DNA of 64,000 bases from a virus (IMGVR_UViG_2974753385_000001:2185-66184), one strand, 5' to 3'; positions 2,902 through 64,000 are shown, counted from the stretch's first letter. The notes: generated by a model from the sequence alone, not told the origin. A program made the numbers and translations.

Positions 2902-3206
2902 CGATGAGGATGAGGTTTGTCGAGGAGTACGCGGTGGAGTGGCTCCGCGCCGACGGCACCACGATCCAGTCGGAGCCGACGCGCTCCTTCGAGGTCGCCG
3001 CCAGCGCCGCGGAGTGGCTCCCGCGCCAGAAGGGCATCCACATGGCGCGGGTCCTCAACCGGACGATCCGGCAGGAGAAGAAGTGGTGGCAGGTGTTCTG
3101 GCTGGACACCGGCATGACCCGCTGGTTCGACGCCGAGGAACGCTTCGAGAACCCTCTCGTCCCCATCGAGGAGGACGGTCGGTTTGACGCTGTCGACGTC
3201 AACTGA
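2898..3206 (+). CDS. hypothetical protein
   Basis: ATGA coupling; Trp-rich. Confidence 0.75.
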   Translation: MTMRMRFVEEYAVEWLRADGTTIQSEPTRSFEVAASAAEWLPRQKGIHMARVLNRTIRQEKKWWQVFWLDTGMTRWFDAEERFENPLVPIEEDGRFDAVDVN

Positions 3207-40066: not shown

Positions 40067-40344
40067 TGCGGGGGCTTCACCGCTCGGGCCGCGTTCATGA
40101 TGTTCTGACGCGCGGTCTCGGGGTCGAAGTAGATGAGGATGCCTTGCGCGTGCATCCGCTCGGCGACCATCCGCATCATGTTCTCGTTGCTGATGCCCGT
40201 CTCGGGGTCCCATTCGTCGTCGAGCCTCTTGATCGGATGGGTGTCGCTCCCGGTGCGTAGCTTGCCCTGCTCGTAGTCGTTGAGGACCGACTCGATACAG
40301 GCCGTCAGCCGGTCGGCCGTGGCCGCGGGGTCGAGCTTCCTCAC
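40063..40344 (-). CDS. hypothetical protein
   Basis: GTG 40344 coupled; 3' part of track ORF 40063..40734. Confidence 0.7.
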   Translation of the reverse strand: MRKLDPAATADRLTACIESVLNDYEQGKLRTGSDTHPIKRLDDEWDPETGISNENMMRMVAERMHAQGILIYFDPETARQNIMNAARAVKPPQ

Positions 40345-40802
40345 ATCGACCCCGCTTCCACGAGCGCCTCGATGGACTCGCGGCTGTACCGGACCTGCTT
40401 GGGCCCGAGTGGCCGGAACCCGATGATCTTGCCTTCTCGCTCCCACCGGCGCAGGGTCGGACGGGAGACGCCGAGCAGGGTGGCCGCGGTGTTCGCGTCC
40501 ATCGTCTCCTTCATCTGCTTGCGCAGCGCGGTGATCCCCTCGGGGGTGCCCTTGCGCGGCAGGTTGCGGGAGTCCGCCCGGCGCGCGGTGTCCATGCGCC
40601 ACTGACGAATCTCCTCGACGATGTCCTCGGCGTGGTCGAGCAGTGCGCTCACGGGTATGCGCATGTGCGACCCGGCGGTGCGACTCATCGGAAGGGTCTT
40701 CATTCCGTTGCGGAGGCAGCGTCGGAGCACCCATGAAGGCACGCCGAGCAGCGTGGCCGCCTGGTCAACACTCACGAGGGTGTCGATGTCTGGGGTATCC
40801 AT
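40341..40802 (-). CDS. double helix-turn-helix (excisionase/MerR-like) DNA-binding protein
   Basis: SVDQAATLLGVPSWVLRR and DANTAATLLGVSRPTLRRWEREG. Confidence 0.82.
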   Translation of the reverse strand: MDTPDIDTLVSVDQAATLLGVPSWVLRRCLRNGMKTLPMSRTAGSHMRIPVSALLDHAEDIVEEIRQWRMDTARRADSRNLPRKGTPEGITALRKQMKETMDANTAATLLGVSRPTLRRWEREGKIIGFRPLGPKQVRYSRESIEALVEAGSM

Positions 40803-53559: not shown

Positions 53560-54506
53560 CCAATCTTCGTGACGCGGGCGAGGGCAACGGAACGGAAGCC
53601 GCCGCCGATTTCGAGGAAGTGCAGGATGCGGAGATCCTCGCCGAACTCGACGGGGTCGAACTCCGCGGGAGTGATGTGCGGCGGGTGCTTGCCGCCGTTG
53701 GCATCGACTACGGCGCGGTCGAGCGCGCCGGACAACGAGTTGCGCCAGACTACCTCGACCTTGCCCTTCGCCAGCTTGGTGAGGATCTCGGCGTTCGACA
53801 GTTCGCTGGCGACCTTCGACCAGTTGCGATCGGGGTTGGCCTGCTGGCCGCGGACCGCGGCATAGGTGCCCTGCTGCGACCAGGTCGCGTGCTCGGCGTC
53901 CTTCGGCTTGGCCTTCTCCGCGGCGGCCTTGTGCCCTAGCGCCTCGGCGGCCACCACCGCTTCGTCGGCCTTCGGCCCGGTGCCGTAGAACTCCGACACC
54001 GTCTGGTCGGCAGGATGGGCGGCACTATCGCTGCCCGTATGGGCGGCACTGTCGTCGCTGTCCGTATGGGCGGCACTGGTGGGCGGCACAGCGTCGCTCT
54101 CCTGCTGGTGGGCGGCACTATGGGCGGCACTGGTGGGCGGCACTGGGGGCGCGTCGGCGGCCCGCTCGCTGTCCTCGGCCCCGCTCGGCTGCGGCTTGAC
54201 GTGGAAGTCGTTCTCGATCGCCTCGCGCACGTCGCCGGACTCGGGGTCGAGCACCTTCTGCGCGCCGATGACGTCGACGTAGGTGACCTGGTCGCTGTCG
54301 GTGTCGGGGTCGATCGCATAGAACGCGCGGATCTCCTCTGCGCCCCACTCGTTGCCCAGGTCGCGCCGCAGCGTGACGAAGGCGAACTTCTTGTTGGCTC
54401 GGGGAGCCTTGGGGGCGACCCAGCCGTACTGCTCGGCGTGAGCAGTTATCTGCTTCGCCATGTCGAGGGCTTCGGCCTTCGCCTCTGCGAACTCTTCTGG
54501 TGTCAT
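53556..54506 (-). CDS. hypothetical protein with internal DNA repeats; first gene of the leftward arm
   Basis: SD GAGGAGG; SAAH/VPPT repeats. Confidence 0.85.
   Translation of the reverse strand: MTPEEFAEAKAEALDMAKQITAHAEQYGWVAPKAPRANKKFAFVTLRRDLGNEWGAEEIRAFYAIDPDTDSDQVTYVDVIGAQKVLDPESGDVREAIENDFHVKPQPSGAEDSERAADAPPVPPTSAAHSAAHQQESDAVPPTSAAHTDSDDSAAHTGSDSAAHPADQTVSEFYGTGPKADEAVVAAEALGHKAAAEKAKPKDAEHATWSQQGTYAAVRGQQANPDRNWSKVASELSNAEILTKLAKGKVEVVWRNSLSGALDRAVVDANGGKHPPHITPAEFDPVEFGEDLRILHFLEIGGGFRSVALARVTKIG
54016..54143. repeat. 7 copies of TGGGCGGCAC
   Basis: Starts at 54016, 54040, 54067, 54080, 54109, 54121, 54134. Confidence 0.9.
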
Positions 54507-54532
54507 GCTTCCTCCTCGGTTGAAACTCTCAA

Positions 54533-54578
54533 ATCCTAATCAGAACAACGGAACTGGTCATATTCGGCTTATTCGGCT
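54533..54578 (-). promoter_or_regulatory. leftward promoter ATGACC-N17-TAGGAT preceded by tandem TATTCGGCT x2
   Basis: -10 at 54533-54538, -35 at 54556-54561, direct repeats 54561-54578. Confidence 0.5.
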
Positions 54579-54593
54579 AGTACCCGCGTACCG

Positions 54594-54665
54594 CCCGGCT
54601 CCCGCGTCCGGCCCGGCCCCGGCCCCGGCTCCCGCGTCCGGCTCCGCGCTCGACCCCGGCTCCCG
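54594..54665 (+). repeat. GC-rich direct repeats CCCGGCTCCCGCGTCCGGC x2 plus a partial third copy
   Basis: Starts at 54594, 54624, 54655. Confidence 0.8.
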
Positions 54666-54674
54666 TGCGCGCCC

Positions 54675-54732
54675 TCGAACGCCCGTTCGACCGCCCTCGG
54701 TCGAACATCCGTTCGACCGAACCTCTGTTCGA
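54675..54732. promoter_or_regulatory. three LexA (SOS) box matches, TCGAAC-N4-GTTCGA
   Basis: Perfect at 54675-54690 and 54701-54716; one mismatch at 54717-54732. Confidence 0.7.
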
Positions 54733-55076
54733 TCCGGTGTCACTCTCGCCCGGCCGGTTGACCCGTTCGCGCTGTGCCGCGCGATCGCCGTGGTGACACC
54801 GTCGGCGCGCTCTCTCTCTGTCGCCGTGGTCGGCCGGGTGCCTTCACCCGGTGCGCGTAACCCTCGCGCTCTGACCGTGTCCCGCTGTTCTGTTCTCAAT
54901 CTGCATATGGCTTGCGCCGTTGCCAACACTGTACGGGTTGATCGCTAACCGATGCAAGTCCAATGTTGGGCGTGTCCCCCGCGGCCGGTCATCGGTGCCG
55001 GTCTCCCCCGCGAGGGGTGCGCGATCGCTCGCGCCGTTGCGGCCGACTGTACGCGACTCTCACGGTTGACGCCAAC

Positions 55077-55106
55077 TAGACAACTAGGCGAGATCTCGCC
55101 TACTGT
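55077..55106 (+). promoter_or_regulatory. promoter TAGACA-N18-TACTGT containing 18-bp palindrome TAGGCGAGATCTCGCCTA; GTTGACGCCAAC just upstream (55065-55076)
   Basis: Direct reading; precedes the RBS GAAAGGATC at 55143. Confidence 0.6.
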
Positions 55107-55156
55107 GACCCTCAACCGGCCGCACACGGCGACCGGCACACCGAAAGGATCTCCCC

Positions 55157-55948
55157 ATGACAACGACACCGTTCAACGTCCGCGAGCTCACCGGCGACGA
55201 TGCCGCGCAGTACCTCGACAACCGGCCGCGTATGCGCGCTTTCCACGTCGACGGCCGCGGAGTGTCGGGACCGTTCACCGCGCAGACGATGCTCACCCCG
55301 TACGGTGCGCCGGTTCATCGTCCGATCGACCCGGCGACCGGGACCAACTCCGACGCGGATCGACCGGTCGCGAGCTATCCCGGTTTCGTGTTCGAGTTTG
55401 GTCCGATGGTCGTCGGTACCTACGTCAACACACACGACGACGCGCAGCGGCACCCGTACCCGTTCACCGTGAACGGCCGCGAGTACCGACGTCTCACCGT
55501 GCGCGCCGACTTCCATCCGATCGACGTCGCCGAGTCGGCCGACTTTTACGGGGTCAAGCGCGCACACTCGGCGAACGGTTACACCCTCGCGCAAGCACGC
55601 ACTCACTGTGAGTACAGCGGCGAAGTGATCGCGTCGCCGGTCCCCGGCACCGACGGTGAAGGACACACCGGTATCTACGTCGTCGACGTGCGTGACTATG
55701 ACGTCACCGACGCGGCACGCCGGACGCTGCGCCGGTTGGTCTCGCACGTCATCGCGACGACGTACCTCGGCGACGCTGACCACCATGACGAGATGCTCGA
55801 CCTCATCGCCCGCGACATCCGCGCCGACATCGTCGTCGCTGATGAGATCTCGACCCGTTGGCAGCGTGAGTCGGCGCGTCTCCAGAACCTCGCCGTTGCT
55901 GCGCGCACCACGGCCGTTCGCAACCCGATTGCGTCGGTGATCGCATGA
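55157..55948 (+). CDS. early-array protein 1, unknown function
   Basis: GAAAGGATC RBS; 1 Lys in 263 aa. Confidence 0.85.
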   Translation: MTTTPFNVRELTGDDAAQYLDNRPRMRAFHVDGRGVSGPFTAQTMLTPYGAPVHRPIDPATGTNSDADRPVASYPGFVFEFGPMVVGTYVNTHDDAQRHPYPFTVNGREYRRLTVRADFHPIDVAESADFYGVKRAHSANGYTLAQARTHCEYSGEVIASPVPGTDGEGHTGIYVVDVRDYDVTDAARRTLRRLVSHVIATTYLGDADHHDEMLDLIARDIRADIVVADEISTRWQRESARLQNLAVAARTTAVRNPIASVIA

Positions 55949-56337
55949 CAACCGCTATCGCGACGCGCGTCGAGTCGGGCCCGCTGCGCGTCGACGTCGA
56001 GCGCGTCGCCGACACCGTCGCCACGCTCACCGCGGCCGGGTATGTCTGGCAAGTGATCACCGACGGCGACGACACCTCCCCGCGGGTGCGCGTCACGTGC
56101 CACGGCCGCAAGGTCTCGCGTCTGTTCGATCGCTGGCAGTACCCGCGCGCGGATGTTTGGCACGCCGTCGGTGTCGCCGGGGTGCGCCTGCTGACGCGCG
56201 CGGACGTCGTCGAGATCGACCACGAACCGGCCGGACCCGGCGCGGCGAGCTACGTCGGCCGACGGCCGTTGCCTGATCACGAACGGCACGCCGTCGAGTC
56301 GGCGACGCGGTTGTACGCCGTGCGAGATCTCGCCTAG
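55945..56337 (+). CDS. early-array protein 2
   Basis: ATGA coupling; 1 Lys. Confidence 0.75.
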   Translation: MTTAIATRVESGPLRVDVERVADTVATLTAAGYVWQVITDGDDTSPRVRVTCHGRKVSRLFDRWQYPRADVWHAVGVAGVRLLTRADVVEIDHEPAGPGAASYVGRRPLPDHERHAVESATRLYAVRDLA

Positions 56338-56341
56338 CTAG

Positions 56342-56425
56342 TTGTCACGATTGACGTCGACGGGTAATGTCGACGGCGCGGCCGCGCAGTCGGCCGCGCA
56401 ACCCTCACCACGAAAGGATCGAAAC
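56342..56425 (+). promoter_or_regulatory. cassette promoter TTGTCA-N17-TAATGT + spacer palindrome + leader hairpin + GAAAGGATCGAAAC RBS
   Basis: -35 at 56342, ATTGACGTCGAC at 56350, -10 at 56365, RBS at 56412. Confidence 0.85.
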
Positions 56426-57181
56426 ATGTTGATCAACACACCCGACGGCGTGACGGCGACCGTCGACGCTCGCACGACATACGCCTACGGTTCGCGCACG
56501 GCGACCGGCACGCTTCGCACGGCGACGGTGACCTACCGCAGCGGGTACGGACACCCGGTGCCGGTCGCGCTCGACGCGATCGCCGGGGACGAATGGACAC
56601 CGTCGGCGCATCCGGCCGCTTGGGATACTCCCCCGACGCACGTCGATACGTGCGAAGTCTCGCGCTACCTCACCCCGGCCGGTGCGCAGCGGGTGCGCAG
56701 CGAGCTACTCAACCGGGCCCGGCGCGCACAATCGGCCGGATGGGACCTCACCCCCGGCCGGATCTACACCGGGGCCCGTGTGACGTCGCTCACCGTGCGG
56801 ACGAACCGTGTGTGTGTCGTGTGGGACCGGCGAGACCTTGTGTGGTGGGAGGACGTATACCTCACCGACGCGCCGGTATACCTCACTCACCGCGACGGGG
56901 TGCGCGAGATCGCCGACGTTCGCGAGTACCTCGACAACCGTCGCGCCTGGATCCACGGCACCGACGACGCCGTCCTGCACGACGCTGACACCGATACCGG
57001 CACCGTGCGTCTGTTCGGTCGGACGGTCGCCGACGTCGTCCGATGCGGCGACTGCGGCCGCGCATGGGATGACGCGCACCCCTCCAGCTCGACCCCGACG
57101 CCCGCGGGCCGGTGCCCTTTTGAGTACGACCACGGTCGACCGGCCGCGCAGCGCGCTTACCCGTTTGGCGGCGAGCTGTGA
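56426..57181 (+). CDS. early-array protein 3 with C-terminal CxxC...C..H motif
   Basis: ATG 56426 after the RBS; CGDCGRAWDD...TP.P.GRCPFEYDH; 0 Lys. Confidence 0.85.
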   Translation: MLINTPDGVTATVDARTTYAYGSRTATGTLRTATVTYRSGYGHPVPVALDAIAGDEWTPSAHPAAWDTPPTHVDTCEVSRYLTPAGAQRVRSELLNRARRAQSAGWDLTPGRIYTGARVTSLTVRTNRVCVVWDRRDLVWWEDVYLTDAPVYLTHRDGVREIADVREYLDNRRAWIHGTDDAVLHDADTDTGTVRLFGRTVADVVRCGDCGRAWDDAHPSSSTPTPAGRCPFEYDHGRPAAQRAYPFGGEL

Positions 57182-57633
57182 GCGCGCCGGGTGCGCGTCT
57201 CGCGCAGCGTCTCACCGCGGCCGGATACCGACGCGCCGACGCGGCCGCATGGTCGGCCGACGGCGAGGTGTGGGAGACCGTCGCTAGTAGTCGATACGGG
57301 TACGCGATCACTACGCGCGTCGAGATCTCGCGAGACCGACGCGGCCGGGTGACGCGCGCGGCATATATCGACGGCGACGGCCGTCGATACCCGTTCGGGC
57401 CCCGGCGCGTCGTCGGCGAGCTGCTCGACTATCTCGCCGGGGTGCGGTTCGACGTCGCGACGTGGAACGGCGCATATCCGACGTTCGGTGTCGCGTATGG
57501 TCCGGCGAGCGTGACGACCGTCGCGACGCGCCGACATGCGCGCGCGTTGCGCGAGACTCGCGCAGCGAACGGCGACCAAGTCACCTTGCGCCGGGTCGAT
57601 CCGGCCGGATACCGGGCCCGCGTCACGCCGTGA
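57178..57633 (+). CDS. early-array protein 4
   Basis: GTGA coupling; 0 Lys. Confidence 0.75.
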   Translation: MSAPGARLAQRLTAAGYRRADAAAWSADGEVWETVASSRYGYAITTRVEISRDRRGRVTRAAYIDGDGRRYPFGPRRVVGELLDYLAGVRFDVATWNGAYPTFGVAYGPASVTTVATRRHARALRETRAANGDQVTLRRVDPAGYRARVTP

Positions 57634-57634
57634 C

Positions 57635-57707
57635 TTGTCACGGTTAACGTCATCCCGTAACGTATGCCTCACCGGGCCCGGCGGGCCCCACACGAAAGGA
57701 TCGAACC
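57635..57707 (+). promoter_or_regulatory. cassette promoter TTGTCA-N17-TAACGT + hairpin + RBS
   Basis: -35 at 57635, GTTAACGTCATC at 57643, -10 at 57658, RBS at 57694. Confidence 0.88.
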
Positions 57708-58481
57708 ATGACAACTCTCACCCCCGCGCAGATCGCCCGCATGACGGCAATGGGCACCCCCGCGCACCGTGAGCATCTCGGCGGCGACTGGACAGTCACC
57801 GACACCGTGCGAAGCGCGCACGTTCTCGCGGCCGTCGTCGCTAACGATGACTTCCACGGCGCGCTATCCAACGTCATCCGCGGCGCGGGTGCGCGTATCT
57901 GGGAAAACCTCGAATACGTCGGTGCCGACGACGTCGACCGGTTCGCTGCGCACGTGGAAGGATCGACCCGCTACGGCACCGACGCGGCCGACCGGGCCCG
58001 GATCGTCGGCGAACTGCGCGCGATCGCCGACTACATGCGCGAGTACGTCGACCCGTTCGCACCCGACCGTTGTGTGGTGTGCGGTGACGTCGTCGACTAC
58101 TGCCAGGGTCACGGGTCGATCGGTGACCCCGACGGCGCGGCCGTACTGCGCGCACACGACGACGAGGACCACACCCGGTGCCACCCGGCCGGGTGCGACG
58201 ACGCGCAGCGCGCGGCCGACGCGGCCGACGCGGCCGCACACAACCGCGGGGCCCGGCACACCCGCGGCGATCACACGGCGTGCTCTCCGTCGCTCTGCGA
58301 CGCGGCACACGCGGCCGCTGCGCGCCGGTACGTCGTGACCGGCGACCGGCGTGGGACCTACTTCGACGGGGTGCGCGCAACCTACGCGCGCAACGTCGCC
58401 GCGGCCGACGTCGACGCGACGGTGACCGCTGCGCAGCGCGCCGGTTGGTCGAACGTCGTCGCGACCGTCGAGAGTTTCTGA
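57708..58481 (+). CDS. early-array protein 5, Cys/His-rich metal-binding-like
   Basis: CVVC, CQGH, two H...DH..C.P..C repeats; 0 Lys. Confidence 0.85.
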   Translation: MTTLTPAQIARMTAMGTPAHREHLGGDWTVTDTVRSAHVLAAVVANDDFHGALSNVIRGAGARIWENLEYVGADDVDRFAAHVEGSTRYGTDAADRARIVGELRAIADYMREYVDPFAPDRCVVCGDVVDYCQGHGSIGDPDGAAVLRAHDDEDHTRCHPAGCDDAQRAADAADAAAHNRGARHTRGDHTACSPSLCDAAHAAAARRYVVTGDRRGTYFDGVRATYARNVAAADVDATVTAAQRAGWSNVVATVESF

Positions 58482-58498
58482 CACACCCCTCACCCCTC

Positions 58499-58528
58499 GC
58501 GGCCGGGTGCCGGGTGGCACCCGGCCGC
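58499..58528 (+). terminator. 13-bp perfect-stem hairpin between array genes
   Basis: GCGGCCGGGTGCC-GGGT-GGCACCCGGCCGC, directly before the RBS at 58536. Confidence 0.6.
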
Positions 58529-58549
58529 ACCCCTCGAAAGGATCGAATC

Positions 58550-59119
58550 ATGCGGATACACACAACTCTCACCGTCGCCGACGTCCGCGAGTGTCTCGCC
58601 GCGGTTAACGCGCTGACGGCCGAGATCTCGACGGACGTCGCTCCGCGCAGCGCGCGCGAGGATTACCGGCCGCACACCGTCACCCCGGCGCGGTTCGACG
58701 CTCTCGACGTCCACGGTTCGCGCACGCACCCCCGCGGGTTAGAGGTGAAACTCACCGGCGACGCAACGAACCGGCCGAACAGCGGGGCCCGCGGGGGCCG
58801 TTGGGGGAGTGACGAATACGCGGCGAGCTATGACCAATGGGGATTGTTCCTTGCTGAGATCTACGCGCGCGATGAGTCGGCGCGGGTGCCGCTGATCTAT
58901 CACAACGGCGACCATTTCCATTGGGCAACCGGCGACCGGTACCGGCGCGAGATCTGGACACCGTCGGACTATCACCGTCGGCACAAGTGGGAGGGTCATG
59001 GCACCGCGGCGACCGGTTCGTACTACGTCAGCGGGTGCGCGGCCGACGATTGCTCGGCGATCACGCGTCGCGTTGCGTACGGCCGCACGTGGGCTGAGAT
59101 CTCGGGGTGCGTGCTGTGA
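58550..59119 (+). CDS. early-array protein 6
   Basis: GAAAGGATCGAATC-ATG at 58536-58552. Confidence 0.85.
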   Translation: MRIHTTLTVADVRECLAAVNALTAEISTDVAPRSAREDYRPHTVTPARFDALDVHGSRTHPRGLEVKLTGDATNRPNSGARGGRWGSDEYAASYDQWGLFLAEIYARDESARVPLIYHNGDHFHWATGDRYRREIWTPSDYHRRHKWEGHGTAATGSYYVSGCAADDCSAITRRVAYGRTWAEISGCVL

Positions 59120-59280
59120 ACGTCCGCGAACGGCGCGCGCTGCGCGAGATCACCGCGGCCGCGCTGCGCGGCGTGGTCGCTATCCCGATCGACTCCCCCG
59201 CTTATTGGCAAGCTCTCGACGCCCTGCACACTGCGCGCGCTCACCGGCGCGCGCTCACCTCGAAAGGATCGACCAAATGA
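59116..59280 (+). CDS. early-array protein 7 (54 aa, below cutoff)
   Basis: MNVRERRALREITAAALRGVVAIP...; coupled at both ends. Confidence 0.6.
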   Translation: MNVRERRALREITAAALRGVVAIPIDSPAYWQALDALHTARAHRRALTSKGSTK

Positions 59281-59837
59281 CCAACCTCACCCCCGGCGAC
59301 GGTGTCGAGATCGACGACGCGACCGGCGAGATCTCCGACGCGCTGCGCGCAGCTTTCCCCGACACCGACGCGGCCGACGTCGTCGAGAACCTCGCCGCGA
59401 TGAGTCACGGGTACCTACTCTCGCTTCTCTGGACACAACGAACCGGCGACGGCGACGACCTCGACGACACGACGCTTCTCGACGCCGGTTACACCGTCGA
59501 CGACGTCGACGCGGCGACGCGCGAACGGGTCACCCGCGAGCTGCGCGACGTCGTCGAGACGCACCCGCTCGCCGTTCGTATGTACGGCGAGCAGCGGCGA
59601 CACAACGCGGCCGACGGTTCGGTGTGGGAACACTTCGGACATGACTTTTTGCTCACTCGCGATCGTCACGGCGCGGGATTCTGGGACCGCGGTCTAGGCG
59701 CGCTCGGCGACTACCTCACCGCGGTCGCCTACGGGTACGGCGAACACGATGAGCTGTTCACCCTCGACGGGGTGACGCTCACCGACGGCGAGGGCCCGGC
59801 CGCGCTCACCCTCACAGAACAGGACCCGGAAAAATGA
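59277..59837 (+). CDS. early-array protein 8, acidic, GHDFLLTRDRHGAGFWDRG motif
   Basis: RBS at 59262; ATG 59277. Confidence 0.85.
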   Translation: MTNLTPGDGVEIDDATGEISDALRAAFPDTDAADVVENLAAMSHGYLLSLLWTQRTGDGDDLDDTTLLDAGYTVDDVDAATRERVTRELRDVVETHPLAVRMYGEQRRHNAADGSVWEHFGHDFLLTRDRHGAGFWDRGLGALGDYLTAVAYGYGEHDELFTLDGVTLTDGEGPAALTLTEQDPEK

Positions 59838-60241
59838 CACTCGACACCCCTACTCCCGGCGCGCACCGGCGCAGCGACCCTTATCGCCGCGCAGATGGAC
59901 AACTCACCGCGTACGCGCTCGGGTGCGGGTACTGCCAGACGTTCGCGGTCGACGGCGCGACCGACTACTACGGGACGACGGCCGACGCTGTCACGCTGCG
60001 CCGTGATGGTTGTTATCACGTCCACGTGCGCGCCGGATCGCTCACTCATGACGAGCGCGGCGCCGCGCGCCGGGTCGACGGCGACCGGGTCGATTGGTAC
60101 ACGTTCGACGATCTCGCCGACGCTCGCCGGTTCTACGCTCGCGTACGTCGTGCGCTGCGCACCGGCGCACCCCTCACCCTCGACGCGCTGCGGAAACTCG
60201 CGCGGCCGGTCGACTTGTCACGGTTAACGTCAATCGGGTAA
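59834..60241 (+). CDS. early-array protein 9 (GQLTAYALGCGY motif)
   Basis: ATGA coupling; ends in the next promoter. Confidence 0.8.
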   Translation: MTLDTPTPGAHRRSDPYRRADGQLTAYALGCGYCQTFAVDGATDYYGTTADAVTLRRDGCYHVHVRAGSLTHDERGAARRVDGDRVDWYTFDDLADARRFYARVRRALRTGAPLTLDALRKLARPVDLSRLTSIG

Positions 60242-60291
60242 CGTCGTCGACACCGGGCCCGCACGGGGCCCGCAACCGAAAGGATCGAATC
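60215..60291 (+). promoter_or_regulatory. cassette promoter TTGTCA-N18-TAACGT + hairpin + RBS
   Basis: -35 at 60215, GTTAACGTCAAT at 60223, -10 at 60239, RBS at 60278. Confidence 0.88.
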
Positions 60292-60537
60292 ATGTCGAAC
60301 GTCACCCCTATCGCGGCCGTTGCAACCCTGCGCGTCGTCGACGTCGAGACCGGTGGTTACCGTTCGCGGTTCTCGTTCGCGAGTTTGTCGGCCGCGCTGA
60401 TGACGCTGCGCGAGCAGTACGGCCCCGGCGAAGCGGACGTACTCGACAACGCCACCGGCGAGGTCTATGACGTCGTGGCCGATGACGACGTCGACGCGCT
60501 CGACTGGACACCCCCGGCCGCGCCGGTCGCGCTCTGA
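60292..60537 (+). CDS. early-array protein 10 (81 aa, acidic)
   Basis: ATG 60292 after the RBS; 0 Lys. Confidence 0.85.
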   Translation: MSNVTPIAAVATLRVVDVETGGYRSRFSFASLSAALMTLREQYGPGEADVLDNATGEVYDVVADDDVDALDWTPPAAPVAL

Positions 60538-60542
60538 CACCG

Positions 60543-60575
60543 ACGGCCGGGCCCACACCGGGCCCGGCCGTTTTC
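60543..60575 (+). terminator. intrinsic terminator
   Basis: ACGGCCGGGCCC-ACACC-GGGCCCGGCCGT then TTTCCTT. Confidence 0.7.
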
Positions 60576-60605
60576 CTTCCCCTCCCCTCGAAAGGATCGA
60601 CCCCG

Positions 60606-61301
60606 ATGGACCTGCACACCCTCGACGGCCGCGCAGTCGGCCGCGCAACCCTCACCCCCGGCGAACTATCGGCGATAGCGCGAGAGGCCGCAACGCATAT
60701 CGGCGCAACGATCGACGCGCGCACCCGTGAGTTGATCGACGCGCAGCGCGCAGCGATCGCCGAGCGGGCCCGGCCGAGCGTCGACCCGGTCGACGGTGGC
60801 ACCGACGGCGCGGCACCCTCGCGCCGTCGCCGTTGGTGGCCGTGGGTTGCGGGTGTGCTGCTCGCGCTCGCGTTGATCGGCGCAGTCGCCGACGGCGACG
60901 ACGACGCACCGGCACCCGCGGCCGACGTCGTGCCGATCGGTGCGCCGACGGTCTCCCCGCAACCGGCCGACGCACCCCGCACGGTCCCGGCCGATGACGG
61001 TTCGATCATGGTCGGTGGCGTCGTGGTGGATAACGTGTTCGACGACGGTTCACCGCTGCGCTCGCGGTTTGCGGGTGTGCTCACCGCATACGGGGTGAGC
61101 GGCACTACCGGCCGATCGCTCGACGCGAACCTTTCCGACGGCGTGACGTTCTGCCAGAACCTCGCGATCGGCGACGCTCTCGCGCAGCGGCACACGGCCG
61201 TTGTCACCGGCACGGCCGACCGGTCGGCCGCATACGGTATCGGGAAACAACGGCGCGCGATTGTCACCGCAGCCCTCTCGACCCTCTGCCCTGCTCTCTA
61301 A
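60606..61301 (+). CDS. early-array protein 11: single-TM membrane protein with DUF732-like two-Cys C-terminal domain
   Basis: RRRRWWPWVAGVLLALALIGAVA TM; DGVTFCQNL..G...AALSTLCP. Confidence 0.75.
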   Translation: MDLHTLDGRAVGRATLTPGELSAIAREAATHIGATIDARTRELIDAQRAAIAERARPSVDPVDGGTDGAAPSRRRRWWPWVAGVLLALALIGAVADGDDDAPAPAADVVPIGAPTVSPQPADAPRTVPADDGSIMVGGVVVDNVFDDGSPLRSRFAGVLTAYGVSGTTGRSLDANLSDGVTFCQNLAIGDALAQRHTAVVTGTADRSAAYGIGKQRRAIVTAALSTLCPAL

Positions 61302-61328
61302 ACCCTCACTCACGTAAAGGATCTCGAC

Positions 61329-61850
61329 ATGCACACCTCACCGAACGGCACCCGTTACCTCACCCTCGACGACGTCACCGCGGTTCTGCCCAACGGCGAC
61401 GCACCCCGGCCGCGCAGCGCGAGCGGGTACGGCGAAATAGCCACGGCGCACCGGGTGCGCTGCGCCGTCGGCGACGACGCGCGGATACTCACCCGGCGCG
61501 TTTACGTTCTGGCCTATGGCAACTCTGGTAGTCCGTTCGTCTACGGCACGGTGTCCGGCGAGCGTCAGCGGTTCTACCTCGACACCGTCACCGAACACAC
61601 GGTGCAAGATCTCGCCGCGGCCGGTGTCACCTGGGCCCCGATTACCAACCTCGACGTGCGCAACGCGCGAGACCTCGACGCTCTCGCCGGGGGTGTCCAC
61701 GGTGGCGGGTACGCGCAGCGGTTGCGCTTCGACGGGTCACCGCGGGGGCCGCTGTGTGTCCACACGACGTCGCGGCCGGACGACCGCGGCCGACCGACGC
61801 GCGAGGGTCGACTCTTCATCGCTCGCCGCGCGTACGACGTCGGCGCGTAG
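61329..61850 (+). CDS. early-array protein 12
   Basis: RBS TAAAGGATC at 61315; GYG.I.T...RRVY..AYGNSGS; 0 Lys. Confidence 0.85.
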   Translation: MHTSPNGTRYLTLDDVTAVLPNGDAPRPRSASGYGEIATAHRVRCAVGDDARILTRRVYVLAYGNSGSPFVYGTVSGERQRFYLDTVTEHTVQDLAAAGVTWAPITNLDVRNARDLDALAGGVHGGGYAQRLRFDGSPRGPLCVHTTSRPDDRGRPTREGRLFIARRAYDVGA

Positions 61851-61859
61851 CTCACCCCG

Positions 61860-61891
61860 TAGGGCCCGGCGCGAGATCTCGCCGGGCCCTA
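61860..61891 (+). terminator. 12-bp stem hairpin enclosing the GAGATCTC palindrome
   Basis: TAGGGCCCGGCG / CGCCGGGCCCTA. Confidence 0.6.
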
Positions 61892-61892
61892 C

Positions 61893-61967
61893 TTGTGCCG
61901 GTTGGTGTCAACGGGTAACGTCGGTGCCAGCGGGTGAGAGGCACCCGCCCCACGAAAGGATCGACCC
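61893..61967 (+). promoter_or_regulatory. cassette promoter TTGTGC-N17-TAACGT + hairpin + RBS
   Basis: GTTGGTGTCAAC at 61901, -10 at 61916, RBS at 61954, ATG 61968. Confidence 0.75.
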
Positions 61968-62132
61968 ATGCCCTACCGAGCACAGAACCGAAACATGATC
62001 GCCGCTGTAAGGCACCCCGGTCACACGGCCGGGGTGCCTTGCTGTCTGCCTACTTGTCACGGTCGACGTCATCGCGTAACGTCGGTGTCGGCGCGGCACA
62101 CGGCCGCGCACGTCGAAAGGATCGAACCATGA
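61968..62132 (+). CDS. possible 54-aa ORF or vestigial cassette gene
   Basis: Perfect RBS and ATG, but the frame runs through a 12-bp hairpin (62009-62040) and the next promoter. Confidence 0.3.
   Translation: MPYRAQNRNMIAAVRHPGHTAGVPCCLPTCHGRRHRVTSVSARHTAAHVERIEP
62054..62128 (+). promoter_or_regulatory. cassette promoter TTGTCA-N17-TAACGT + hairpin + RBS
   Basis: -35 at 62054, GTCGACGTCATC at 62062, -10 at 62077, RBS at 62115. Confidence 0.88.
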
Positions 62133-62563
62133 CACACACCCTCACCCCCGGCACCGTCGCTACCGTCGTCGAGTCGCGCGAGCTGCGCGATCACGTCGTG
62201 CGCGTTGTCAGCGTCGACGTCGATAACGAGATCGCGCATGTCGAGATCGACCGGCCGACCGTCGCGCCGGGTCTGCTCACCGTCGCCGTGCGGTTTGCTG
62301 ATCTGGTCCCGGTGACCGGGTCGACCAAGATCACGAAACTCACCGCGGCGAACGTCCGCGCGTTGCGAGAGGCTGTCCAGCACGGTTTCCTATCCGGCGT
62401 CGAGACCGGCGAGACCGTTGCGACGTTCGTCGGCTCCCCGGCCGACGCGCTCGCGCGCGTCGACGCTGCGCGCGAGGGTCTCGCGGGTCTGTTCGGCACC
62501 CGCGGCCACCCGGTCGCGTCGATTCCGGCCGTGCGCCGTAAGTTGATCGCGGCCGGTCGCTGA
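62129..62563 (+). CDS. early-array protein 13
   Basis: ATG 62129 after GAAAGGATCGAACC. Confidence 0.85.
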   Translation: MTHTLTPGTVATVVESRELRDHVVRVVSVDVDNEIAHVEIDRPTVAPGLLTVAVRFADLVPVTGSTKITKLTAANVRALREAVQHGFLSGVETGETVATFVGSPADALARVDAAREGLAGLFGTRGHPVASIPAVRRKLIAAGR

Positions 62564-62570
62564 TCTCACC

Positions 62571-62608
62571 CGGCCGGGCCCGCGCGAGTAGCGGGCCCGG
62601 CCGTTCTG
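62571..62608 (+). terminator. intrinsic terminator-like hairpin
   Basis: CGGCCGGGCCCGC / GCGGGCCCGGCCG then TTCTG. Confidence 0.65.
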
Positions 62609-62635
62609 TATCCCACACACACAAAGGATGAACCG

Positions 62636-62914
62636 ATGACACTTGCAACAACTCTCGCCGCACTCGCGGCGATACTGTCCCCCGTACACGCACCGGCCGA
62701 CGTGACGGTGTACCCGGTCGACTCCCACGGCGTCACCGTCGTCGCGCCGCGGTTGTCCGGCACCGGCGAGCTACTGGAGGATGAGTCGCCGTGGTCCGGC
62801 GCGTACGGCGGCGAGCTGATCAACTTCGGCGCGGGTATCGCTTGCTACACCGACCACACGGCGACCGACGGCGCAGCGTGGCACATTGTCCAGACATGCG
62901 AGCGTCCGGCATGA
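62636..62914 (+). CDS. early-array protein 14, putative secreted protein
   Basis: N-terminal hydrophobic MTLATTLAALAAILSPVHA; two Cys; RBS AAAGGATG. Confidence 0.75.
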   Translation: MTLATTLAALAAILSPVHAPADVTVYPVDSHGVTVVAPRLSGTGELLEDESPWSGAYGGELINFGAGIACYTDHTATDGAAWHIVQTCERPA

Positions 62915-63054
62915 CGCGCGACGACGCGCAGCTCGCGCGCCGGACGTCCGCGAGTGCGACCGAGACTTTCCGGTGTCGCCGGTGCGGGGAGTCTCGACGC
63001 GAAGTGATGGGAGACATTCGCCCGGTGTGCGATCGCTGTGTAGCGCGCGCATAG
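62911..63054 (+). CDS. early-array protein 15, 47-aa CxxC-CxxC zinc ribbon
   Basis: ATGA coupling; CRRC...CDRC. Confidence 0.65.
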   Translation: MTRDDAQLARRTSASATETFRCRRCGESRREVMGDIRPVCDRCVARA

Positions 63055-63107
63055 CCTTATCCGGTCCCGGCGCGCGCCGGTCGACCTAGTCCCGGCCGTC
63101 GGTGAAT

Positions 63108-63150
63108 CTCACCCCCGATACCTCACGGTGTCGGGGGTGAGTTGCGTTCT
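63108..63150 (+). terminator. terminator closing the array
   Basis: CTCACCCCCGATA / TGTCGGGGGTGAG then TTGCGTTCT. Confidence 0.6.
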
Positions 63151-63370
63151 GGGCACCCCTCGCGGGGGAGGGGTGCCACGGGTAGGGGTGCCACACGGCC
63201 GCGGTGTGATCGGCGCGAGATCTCGCCACACGGCCGCGTGCTGCGCGCCGATTGCGCCGCGGGACCTCGCACCCGGTCGGGGACGTCCACCTCGTGAGGG
63301 GTGCCTACAGCGGGCCCTATGGGGTGCCCTAGTGGGTTGTTTTTCGAGCGGGTGTGGCGAGGGTACGGAG

Positions 63371-63600
63371 GAAAATTGAAAAACTCATAATTCCTCATGA
63401 GGAATCGCATTTTCTTCATATCGAATAATTGTTCGATATGTATAAACAATGGGATAGATATATGGCTATGGGTAGGGGTCCTATATAGGGGTGAATATGG
63501 CACATATACATATATATGTATATTGCATATTATTTATTGGAATAATTATTTGATATTTGAATTATCAATTTGTTTTTGTTTGTGTCAATCATGACAACTC
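63371..63600. other. AT-rich (~29% GC) palindrome-dense island near the right end
   Basis: 66 G+C in 230 nt by hand count; several perfect palindromes and a LexA-like box at 63421-63436. Confidence 0.9.
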
Positions 63601-63990
63601 ATGAGAGGAAAGCGAAGGGTGAGAGTGATCAGAGTTGCGGATATGCGCGGCGAGATCGAACGTCGTCGAGAGGCTGCGCGTCGTGTGAGTAGCGGCGAAG
63701 GGTGCGAAGGGTGCGAAGTGATCAGGTGCGCAGCGATCGACGCGGCCGCGGTGATCGGGTGCGCGGCGAGGTTTGCGAGGGTGCGCCGAACGGGGTGTGC
63801 GTTGCGGCCGCTGTACGCGCCGTGTGCGCGTCGAGATCTCGCCGGGTGTGCCGAGGTGCGAGCGTGCGTTATCGGGTGTGAGCAGCGAAAACAGCGGCAC
63901 GCATGGCCTCGCGGGTGGCGCAGGGACCCGCACGGCGCGAAGCGTCGGGTGGGGGGTGTCACCCCTCCCCCGGCCGTCCGGCCGGGGGCC

Positions 63991-64000
63991 CGCCGCGTAC
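63991..64000 (+). other. probable right genome end / 10-nt 3' cos overhang CGCCGCGTAC
   Basis: Window terminus after a long non-coding tract; HNH+TerL packaging; the sequence matches my recollection of Gordonia cluster CR overhangs. Confidence 0.6.

Follow-up and report, generated by a model that had tools for sequence, protein, structure and literature searches.

A probable tandem set of standardised small-gene units at the right end of an actinobacteriophage genome

What is encoded in the last 8 kb of a phage genome in which similar promoters and ribosome-binding motifs recur in front of one small gene after another? The stretch of DNA that we analyzed (IMGVR_UViG_2974753385_000001:2185-66184, referred to below as the window) is 64,000 nt long, corresponds to bases 2185-66184 of a linear 66,184-bp phage genome, and its last base is the right end of that genome, as an earlier note on this DNA had supposed when it placed an array of repeated expression cassettes at a genome end. 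We consider it likely that six transcription units stand in tandem in these 8 kb, that together they carry about 15 small accessory genes, and that they are built from standardised parts. All coordinates are counted within the window; some of the motif counts cover the whole 66,184-bp genome on both strands.

The genome has defined ends and no terminal repeat. The records closest to it belong to five phages that infect Gordonia terrae, namely IDyn, NadineRae, HubbaBubba, WhoseManz and Marietta, all members of the genus Sukkupivirus (Zierdtviridae, Emilbogenvirinae), and identity to these relatives over the array region is 90-93%. According to the annotation of IDyn, from which the module layout was taken, rightward small genes, the terminase, and the structural and lysis genes extend up to ~37.5 kb, the stretch from there to ~54.6 kb is read leftward and encodes replication functions (primase, DnaE, helicase) along with an HTH protein and two WhiB-like proteins, and a rightward small-gene block occupies the remainder up to the right end. 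Since neither an integrase nor a repressor is among the genes annotated in IDyn, the phage looks lytic.

The first of the shared parts is the promoter. The pattern TTGTSM-N17-TAAYGT has four exact matches in the window (56342, 57635, 61893 and 62054), compared with 0.00 expected from shuffles, and a fifth copy with an N18 spacer was found by regular expression at 60215. These are the five near-identical promoters listed in the earlier note, all at the positions given there. A looser pattern, TTGNNN-N17/18-TAAYGT, returned only the five array copies when both strands of the whole genome were searched, and the five TTGTCA-N17/18-TAACGT-type promoters all fall within 56342-62082. The sixth variant noted at 55077 is present as well, though it is far less similar to the other five: this promoter, P0, reads TAGACA (55077-55082)-N18-TACTGT (55101-55106), and its spacer holds the palindrome GCGAGATCTCGC (55088-55099). 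The -35 hexamer TTGTCA matches the sigma-70 consensus at five of six positions, and the -10 hexamer TAACGT, whose second base is A and whose sixth is T, agrees with the TANNNT form of actinobacteria; the two hexamers lie 17-18 bp apart. Judged by their sequence, the array units are headed by host-SigA-type promoters with a -35 TTGTCA, a 17-18 bp spacer and a -10 TAACGT. Each array promoter spacer holds a degenerate 10/12 copy of the 12-bp palindrome GTTGACGTCAAC, and the promoters stand at orthologous sites in all five relatives.

The second shared part is a ribosome-site motif, a start-associated sequence (SAS), with the consensus (C)GAAAGGATCGA(A/C)C, which is located 5-8 nt before an ATG at the end of a 44-55 nt leader. 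Its GAAAGGA core should be complementary to the last seven bases of 16S rRNA. With the rRNA 3' end taken from established knowledge, the conservation of SAS reaches past the bases able to pair with 16S rRNA, and the TCGA that follows GGA is nearly invariant among the copies. The sequence GAAAGGATC was found 10 times versus 0.42 expected, nine of the matches being inside the array region. The shorter AAAGGAT occurs 12 times in the genome, and 11 of these copies lie on the plus strand at 55144-62623, all in one orientation within 8 kb; this confirms the 11 copies of the earlier note, whose coordinates name the preceding base. All 11 array copies end 5-8 nt before an ATG start. ATG is used as the start codon by 11 of 11 SAS genes versus 42 of 65 genes elsewhere, and ATGAC starts were found in 8 of 16 array genes versus 6 of 65 elsewhere. 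A promoter was found ahead of 5 of the 11 SAS copies, in addition to P0 in its weaker form, but SAS also stands ahead of promoter-less genes that follow hairpins (g6, g11 and g15) and, before g8, inside a coding overlap. The motif is restricted to the right-end module; no other module of the genome has it. The same division is seen in IDyn, where the right-end genes carry a near-invariant CGAAAGGATCGA(A/C)C, whereas the left-arm and replication genes have varied GGAG/AGGAG sites or leaderless TANNNT-N6-7-ATG starts. In IMG/VR, the exact SAS motif is multi-copy solely in contigs of the subfamily Emilbogenvirinae.

As a separate observation on translation starts, the IDyn left-end genes 1, 3, 5, 12, 21 and 23 (with window homologues near 469 and 3192) lack a Shine-Dalgarno sequence and carry a TANNNT hexamer 6-7 nt ahead of the ATG. 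Several left-end small genes are likely to be expressed from leaderless mRNAs, and if so, the phage would use three translation-start modes in three modules.

To assess the conservation of these elements, we computed differences per site against the five Sukkupivirus relatives. The values were 0.007 for the -10 hexamers, 0.013 for the -35 hexamers and 0.022 for SAS, compared with 0.078 for other intergenic positions and 0.108 for the promoter spacers. The hexamers and SAS vary 4-10 times less than the neighbouring intergenic DNA. Since their differences per site are far below those of other intergenic DNA, the comparison indicates that the promoter hexamers and SAS are under purifying selection and that the spacer is not. 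The same promoter and ribosome-site types were found in two sister genera, Kablunavirus (Buggaboo and Kabluna) and Foxborovirus (Emianna), with 1-2 promoters and 2-4 motifs there versus 5-6 promoters and 9-11 motifs in Sukkupivirus (11 in the window). This graded copy number opens the way to straightforward comparative and mutational tests.

The array comprises 16 open reading frames (ORFs), that is, 15 genes and one 13-codon remnant, distributed over the six units (Table 1). The genes g1 and g2 overlap by ATGA, the stop codon TAA of g9 sits within the P3 -10, and the end of one hairpin at 61892 directly adjoins the start of the P4 -35 at 61893. At 59813, g9 is preceded by CACAGAACAGGA, a start motif of another type. 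Six strong hairpins with stems of 13-16 bp (z -3.8 to -6.4) follow genes, at 58499, 60542 (then UUUU), 61859, 62007, 62571 (then UUCUGU) and 63108, and terminator-promoter composites are found at 61859-61921 and 62007-62082. From their sequence, these strong GC hairpins can be expected to end or attenuate units. The six strong stems after genes bear out the hairpins between units that the earlier note had described.

Table 1 Features of the right-end array and its palindromes (window coordinates)
Feature	Position	Strand	Content
Divergent control region	55056..55106	both	P0 rightward; conserved in five relatives
Palindrome GTTGACGCCAAC	55065-55076		abuts P0 -35
Candidate leftward promoter	55083 down to 55056	minus	TTGTCT-N16-GAGAGT
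Unit 0	55143..56337	+	P0-driven; SAS 55143; g1 55157-55948 (263 aa); g2 55945-56337 (130 aa)
GCGAGATCTCGC	56322		just upstream of P1 -35
Unit 1	56342..57633	+	P1 TTGTCA-N17-TAATGT 56342-56370; leader hairpin 56376-56399; SAS 56412
Unit 1, genes		+	g3 56426-57181; g4 57178-57633
Unit 2	57635..60241	+	P2 57635-57663; SAS 57694; g5 57708-58481; hairpin 58499-58528 (no U tract)
Unit 2, second part		+	SAS 58536; g6 58550-59119; g7 59116-59280
Unit 2, last part		+	SAS 59262 (inside g7 end); g8 59277-59837; g9 59834-60241
Unit 3	60215..61892	+	P3 N18 60215-60244; SAS 60278; g10 60292-60537; terminator 60542-60572, then UUUU
Unit 3, rest		+	SAS 60590; g11 membrane protein 60606-61301; SAS-like 61315; g12 61329-61850
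Palindromic hairpin	61859-61892		contains GCGAGATCTCGC; ends Unit 3
Unit 4 (emptied cassette)	61893..62042	+	P4 61893-61921; SAS 61954; 13-codon remnant 61968-62008
Unit 4, terminator hairpin	62007-62042		belongs to remnant gene
Unit 5	62054..63141	+	P5 62054-62082; SAS 62115; g14 62129-62563; terminator 62571-62603
Unit 5, rest		+	weaker SAS 62623 (CAAAGGATG); g15 62636-62914; g16 62911-63054; final hairpin 63108-63141
CGAGATCTCG copies	338, 8928, 20693, 55089, 56323, 57321, 58621, 61872, 63216, 63832		between and inside genes

Over ~100 bp, headers from different units share 75-80% of their bases, and since they are repeated in direct orientation, recombination between them is possible. The earlier note had proposed an alignment with relatives in search of breakpoints at the headers, and such breakpoints do exist. 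An additional unit of ~470 bp, consisting of promoter, leader, ribosome site, gp86 and hairpin, is present in IDyn alone and is bounded by two promoter copies. In the window, P4 is a hybrid of these two: its upstream flank matches the first IDyn copy at 36 of 40 positions and its downstream flank matches the second copy at 46 of 50, which argues for recombination between headers. Header swaps were found in the interval between g8 and g11. There the window has the arrangement g9-P3-g10; WhoseManz and Marietta have no g9, and the header before their g10 is of the P2 type, with 94% identity over ~100 bp; NadineRae lacks both P3 and g10, and its g9 is preceded by a 29-mer identical to P5; and in IDyn and HubbaBubba another gene replaces g9, with the join ~25 bp upstream of P3. 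Other differences lie outside the headers, as g5 and the last array gene vary internally, and breakpoints fall within g5 and near the 3' terminus of g8. The gene behind P4 encodes 146 aa in all five relatives and is reduced to 13 codons here by a 413-bp deletion at 62008 that is unique to the window phage. In this unit P4 and the ribosome site are intact, and the remnant frame (61968-62132) stays open across P5 until it meets the ATGA of g14, where it stops.

On the reading of the array as a tandem set of standardised units, host RNA polymerase would transcribe the units in the early or middle phase of infection, together with the remaining non-structural modules. On the mRNA, GAAAGGA would pair with the 16S rRNA end, and the invariant TCGA flank could provide a common handle for efficient, possibly regulated, initiation of translation. 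The ~100-bp headers, as direct repeats, would allow homologous recombination to add, delete and re-head cassettes.

Several results weigh against this reading. The 413-bp deletion lies inside a coding sequence and has no repeat at its ends. As a control, we compared the left-end small-gene module, which is free of headers, with IDyn and found at least 7 alignment breaks in ~10 kb, while the 24-kb structural block had none; gene flux in this header-free module is at least as high as in the array. Because the header-free module has as many breaks, we conclude that the headers mediate some exchange events but are not required for gene flux. Cassette gain and loss by header recombination, which the earlier note had envisaged, accounts for the IDyn unit and the swapped headers, but neither for the deletion at 62008 nor for the equal flux in the header-free module. 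The -10 hexamer TAACGT matches TATAAT at just three of six positions; for this reason a promoter/terminator scan with an E. coli-type consensus did not call the array promoters, and it found one terminator (62571). Three hairpins have no U tract, and the leader hairpins after the promoters, considered as individually significant structures, were rejected, as they were not better than shuffles (z +0.2 to -1.6). The array spacer palindrome evolves as fast as neutral DNA (0.108 per site), which makes its role as an operator in the array doubtful. Finally, the role of SAS was unverified as of 2025 (PMC12699233), even in the Cluster K mycobacteriophages, where it was first described (PMC3203893).

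The palindromes also bear on an alternative in which the headers are mainly regulatory targets. The sequence GTTGACGTCAAC has 23 matches at up to 2 mismatches versus 2.6 expected. At 3192 (+), 45563 (-) and 52947 (-) it shows the geometry -35, 1-2 nt, palindrome, 3-4 nt, -10, and further copies are present at 469, 48108 and 55065, the last in the divergent region. Perfect or near-perfect copies were seen in left-end and replication promoter settings, mostly between a TTGAC-type -35 and a TANNNT -10. The promoter type thus also occurs outside the array, since promoters of the left-end and replication modules have its -35/palindrome/-10 layout, which suggests a genome-wide set of non-structural-gene promoters. 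Since this design is common to the replication and left-end modules, the array may be assigned to the early or middle class. The second palindrome, CGAGATCTCG, is conserved in relatives, and 7 of its 10 genomic copies are concentrated in the last 9 kb; the P0 spacer holds one copy, two lie ~10 bp upstream of the -35 of P1 and P4, and several are inside genes. Direct repeats GTCAC/GTCAT 11 bp apart are a conceivable site for an OmpR-type regulator, for example MtrA.

According to this alternative, a phage DNA-binding protein would act on the spacer palindrome and/or CGAGATCTCG and switch the array as a regulon, and a second factor, a protein or an RNA, would bind SAS and shut off translation in the manner of T4 RegA/RegB. 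The excess of GTTGACGTCAAC and its fixed place in the promoters of three modules are in line with such a regulon, as are the clustering of CGAGATCTCG near the right end and its copies at P0 and upstream of two -35 hexamers. Moreover, the phage encodes candidate regulators, namely an HTH_17/MerR-like protein (40341-40802, -) and two WhiB-like proteins, and the inverted repeats in the ESAS of the Cluster K phage Adephagia are suspected operators (PMC11373665). However, the array copies of the spacer palindrome each carry 2 mismatches and evolve neutrally, and CGAGATCTCG is in several cases found inside genes. We regard this alternative as a tentative possibility.

The gene products are relevant for the proposal of the earlier note that the array is a host-takeover and anti-defence island that enters first. 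As stated there, about 15 small genes have no recognisable enzymatic function: none of the 16 array ORFs reached the Pfam cut-off (sub-threshold matches only, to Mu Gp27, DUF732 and a zinc ribbon), and the PHROG matches are to families of unknown function, the exceptions being a 'membrane protein' and a weak hit on a family named 'head maturation protease'. The latter concerns g15, which, like its homologues IDyn gp89, NadineRae gp91 and Marietta gp91, is a 92-aa protein, and in some records the label 'head maturation protease' is attached to this family. The one basis that we saw for the label is weak, a match (E 3e-11) that covers just the C-terminal 70 of the 861 positions of a PHROG, and on the g15 homologues the label is probably a mis-annotation by annotation carry-over. 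The ORFs themselves are real genes under purifying selection, since their pooled dN/dS against IDyn is 0.23 (0.22 for g1 and 0.19 for g2), with 0.17 for structural and 0.12 for replication genes. The one product that was modelled is that of g8 (59277-59837), which is 186 aa long, acidic (21% D+E) and marked by the invariant motif HGAGFWDRG; its 311 homologues are distributed over phages of Gordonia and Mycobacterium and some actinobacterial chromosomes. Its AlphaFold model is helical and confident (pLDDT 86.9). The Foldseek search that the earlier note had recommended was run for this protein and gave no match at E <= 0.001 (best VIA Z 3.8), and thus no support for a DNA mimic or another known fold; taken on a predicted model, the absence of a structural match is no proof of a new fold. 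The Protein Atlas returned no named neighbours for g8 and nothing for g1, and a PDB sequence search of g5, g6 and g8 gave no match.

If the island were the first DNA to enter, as in the first-step transfer of T5 or the early region of T7, its products could disarm host defences. The right-end location of the array in a genome whose ends are defined, its many host-type promoters, the small and variable genes of unknown function that are nevertheless under purifying selection, and the wide distribution of the acidic g8 family in actinophages all fit this proposal. On the other hand, no array product matched a known anti-defence or takeover protein in Pfam, PHROGs, PDB sequences or the Atlas, g8, the sole folded product, appears from its model to be without a known fold, and after cos joining the array merely runs on continuously into the left-end small genes. 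We rate a first-entering takeover island as unlikely.

The array also differs from the rest of the genome in composition. Lysine makes up 0.49% of its residues (12 of 2,438; window 55157-63054) versus 4.5-4.9% in other modules. We counted 5 AAG codons in the array, compared with 143, 389 and 188 in the IDyn left-end small genes, structural plus lysis genes, and replication genes, respectively, and no AGG codons, compared with 26, 14 and 6 in the same modules. Per codon, AAG is depleted ~20-fold, and the remaining lysines use AAA as often as AAG. The sense-strand relative abundance of AG is 0.44 in the array versus 0.90-0.95 in other modules; along the plus strand it is 0.3-0.6 in a sharply bounded domain versus 0.8-1.2 elsewhere, and this domain starts at ~54.5 kb and ends at ~63 kb, coinciding with the array. 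G follows NAG codons in 16% of cases in the array versus 37% in other modules, which is not an amino-acid by-product, since first-position G is commoner in the array. The residues are shifted from E, Q and K to D, H and R. Low lysine recurs in three genera, at the right ends of IDyn, Buggaboo, Kabluna and Emianna: right-end genes have 0.37-0.68%, whereas in Buggaboo and Emianna the neighbouring genes that run leftward have 3.3-4.1%. In addition, between 54500 and 63000 the relative abundance of CT is ~0.7 versus ~1 elsewhere, AGG occurs 2.8 times per kb in sense and 8.6 times in antisense orientation, CTCACC is enriched (4.0 per kb sense versus 0.14 antisense), ACGT, CGCG and TCGA are abundant, and GC3 is lower (0.82 versus 0.89) though G+C is higher.

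Three ideas about this composition were tried and rejected. SAS and the lysine/AG purge do not always go together, as shown by the SAS genes of Adephagia (4.2% K, AG relative abundance 0.83). The lysine paucity of g8 is not purely local, because its homologues in unrelated mycobacteriophages are also lysine-poor, and only the E-to-D shift is local. Restriction-site avoidance does not account for the AG depletion, as 4-mer palindromes gave no clear signal and the depletion is strand-asymmetric. Since g8 homologues elsewhere are lysine-poor but not E-poor, protein-level and nucleotide-level forces both seem to act. With mRNA bodies purged of AG/AGG, SAS would be nearly the sole site in each cistron complementary to the anti-Shine-Dalgarno sequence. 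For actinophages, a correlation that is still untested has been published on lysine deserts, along with a hypothesis that involves the Pup-proteasome (PMC13696103). In the present phage, the array could be an insulated expression module: about 15 proteins would be made from mRNAs with one uniform ribosome-loading motif that are otherwise nearly free of AG/AGG and lysine codons, so that the set could still be translated, and its products could persist, while some activity against lysine or AG is at work in the infected cell. Candidate agents are a tRNA-Lys-cleaving or codon-specific mRNA-cleaving defence or toxin, and the Pup-proteasome, which needs a lysine in its substrate. Such insulation is quite improbable; if true, the rest of the genome, with normal lysine at nearly the same G+C, would serve as a within-genome control for the adaptive lysine-desert idea, and if the purge is linked to the array, a correlative proteome-wide observation would become a testable module-level case.

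Very improbable is the remaining alternative, that the repeats have no common function and are ordinary promoters and ribosome sites alike through recent duplication or gene conversion: the similarity of the headers, their exchange between positions in relatives, which points to ongoing copying, and the neutral drift of the promoter spacer would agree with it, but the hexamers and SAS are conserved well beyond the neighbouring intergenic DNA, the elements are kept in three genera with differing flanking genes, and SAS, used by no other module, stands inside coding overlaps and after terminators without a co-copied promoter.

Beyond the last unit, the right end is non-coding for ~950 bp and includes an AT-rich island at 63340-63600 (28.5% G+C in 63400-63599) that is ~93% conserved in relatives. 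In this island, the E. coli-type scan found a near-consensus promoter, TTGACA-16-GATAAT, at 63588-63561 on the minus strand. An Rfam search of 54000-64000 gave no match above noise.

As a tandem set of units with standardised parts, the array appears to belong with the SAS/ESAS systems of actinobacteriophages, and its pair of motif and header fits the Cluster K description feature by feature. SAS and ESAS of Cluster K mycobacteriophages were described in 2011 (PMC3203893). As here, SAS is asymmetric, 11-13 bp long and placed where a ribosome site is expected, 3-9 nt ahead of the start, its conservation extends past the bases that pair with 16S rRNA, and its 10-19 copies are in a single orientation, restricted to non-structural right-arm genes and associated with a preference for ATG (PMC3203893). 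ESAS is an extended element of ~50 bp before about half of the copies, with SigA-like -35 and -10 hexamers 17-18 bp apart and an imperfect inverted repeat; in Adephagia, it is likewise a SigA-like promoter with an inverted repeat (PMC11373665). The sequences differ, GGGATAGGAGCCC in Cluster K and CGAAAGGATCGA here, the present phage is lytic and infects Gordonia, and the SAS genes of Adephagia are not purged of lysine or AG, whereas the array genes are. Cluster EF Microbacterium phages have the SAS GGGAAAGGACCCC (Jacobs-Sera et al. 2020, PMC7302621). They share with the window phage the GAAAGGA core, about ten copies upstream of starts, a lytic lifestyle and a linked conserved element further upstream, but the flanks are GGG...CCCC there and C...TCGA here, the upstream element is centred on GTAGAG rather than being TTGTCA-N17-TAACGT, and the genomes are unrelated. 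In the literature, we found no paper describing such elements in Gordonia phages. SAS and ESAS have been known since 2011 while their role is still open, and this subfamily of Gordonia phages offers a clean third example.

In their arrangement as cassettes, the units resemble the promoter-early stem-loop cassettes (PeSLs) of T4-type phages (Arbiol et al. 2010, PMC2839356; PMC4122927). In both cases a strong host-type promoter and a terminator hairpin, known here from sequence alone, are repeated between small non-essential ORFs of a variable region, and indels or replacements between close relatives break within the repeats; in the present case the IDyn gp86 cassette lies between two promoter copies, and a terminator hairpin abuts P4. 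The two differ in host, phage lineage and sequence, and the headers described here add a standardised ribosome-binding motif. Header-mediated shuffling of cassettes, like that of the PeSLs, is one concrete route of accessory-gene turnover in actinophages. A further parallel is with the morons of lambdoid phages, reportedly promoter-gene-terminator units inserted between genes, as recognised by Hendrix and colleagues. Like them, P3-g10-terminator and the promoter-gp86-hairpin of IDyn are self-contained promoter-gene-terminator units that are present in some close relatives and absent from others; morons, however, are said to be single unrelated insertions, usually in temperate phages, whereas the units described here stand in tandem and share one header design.

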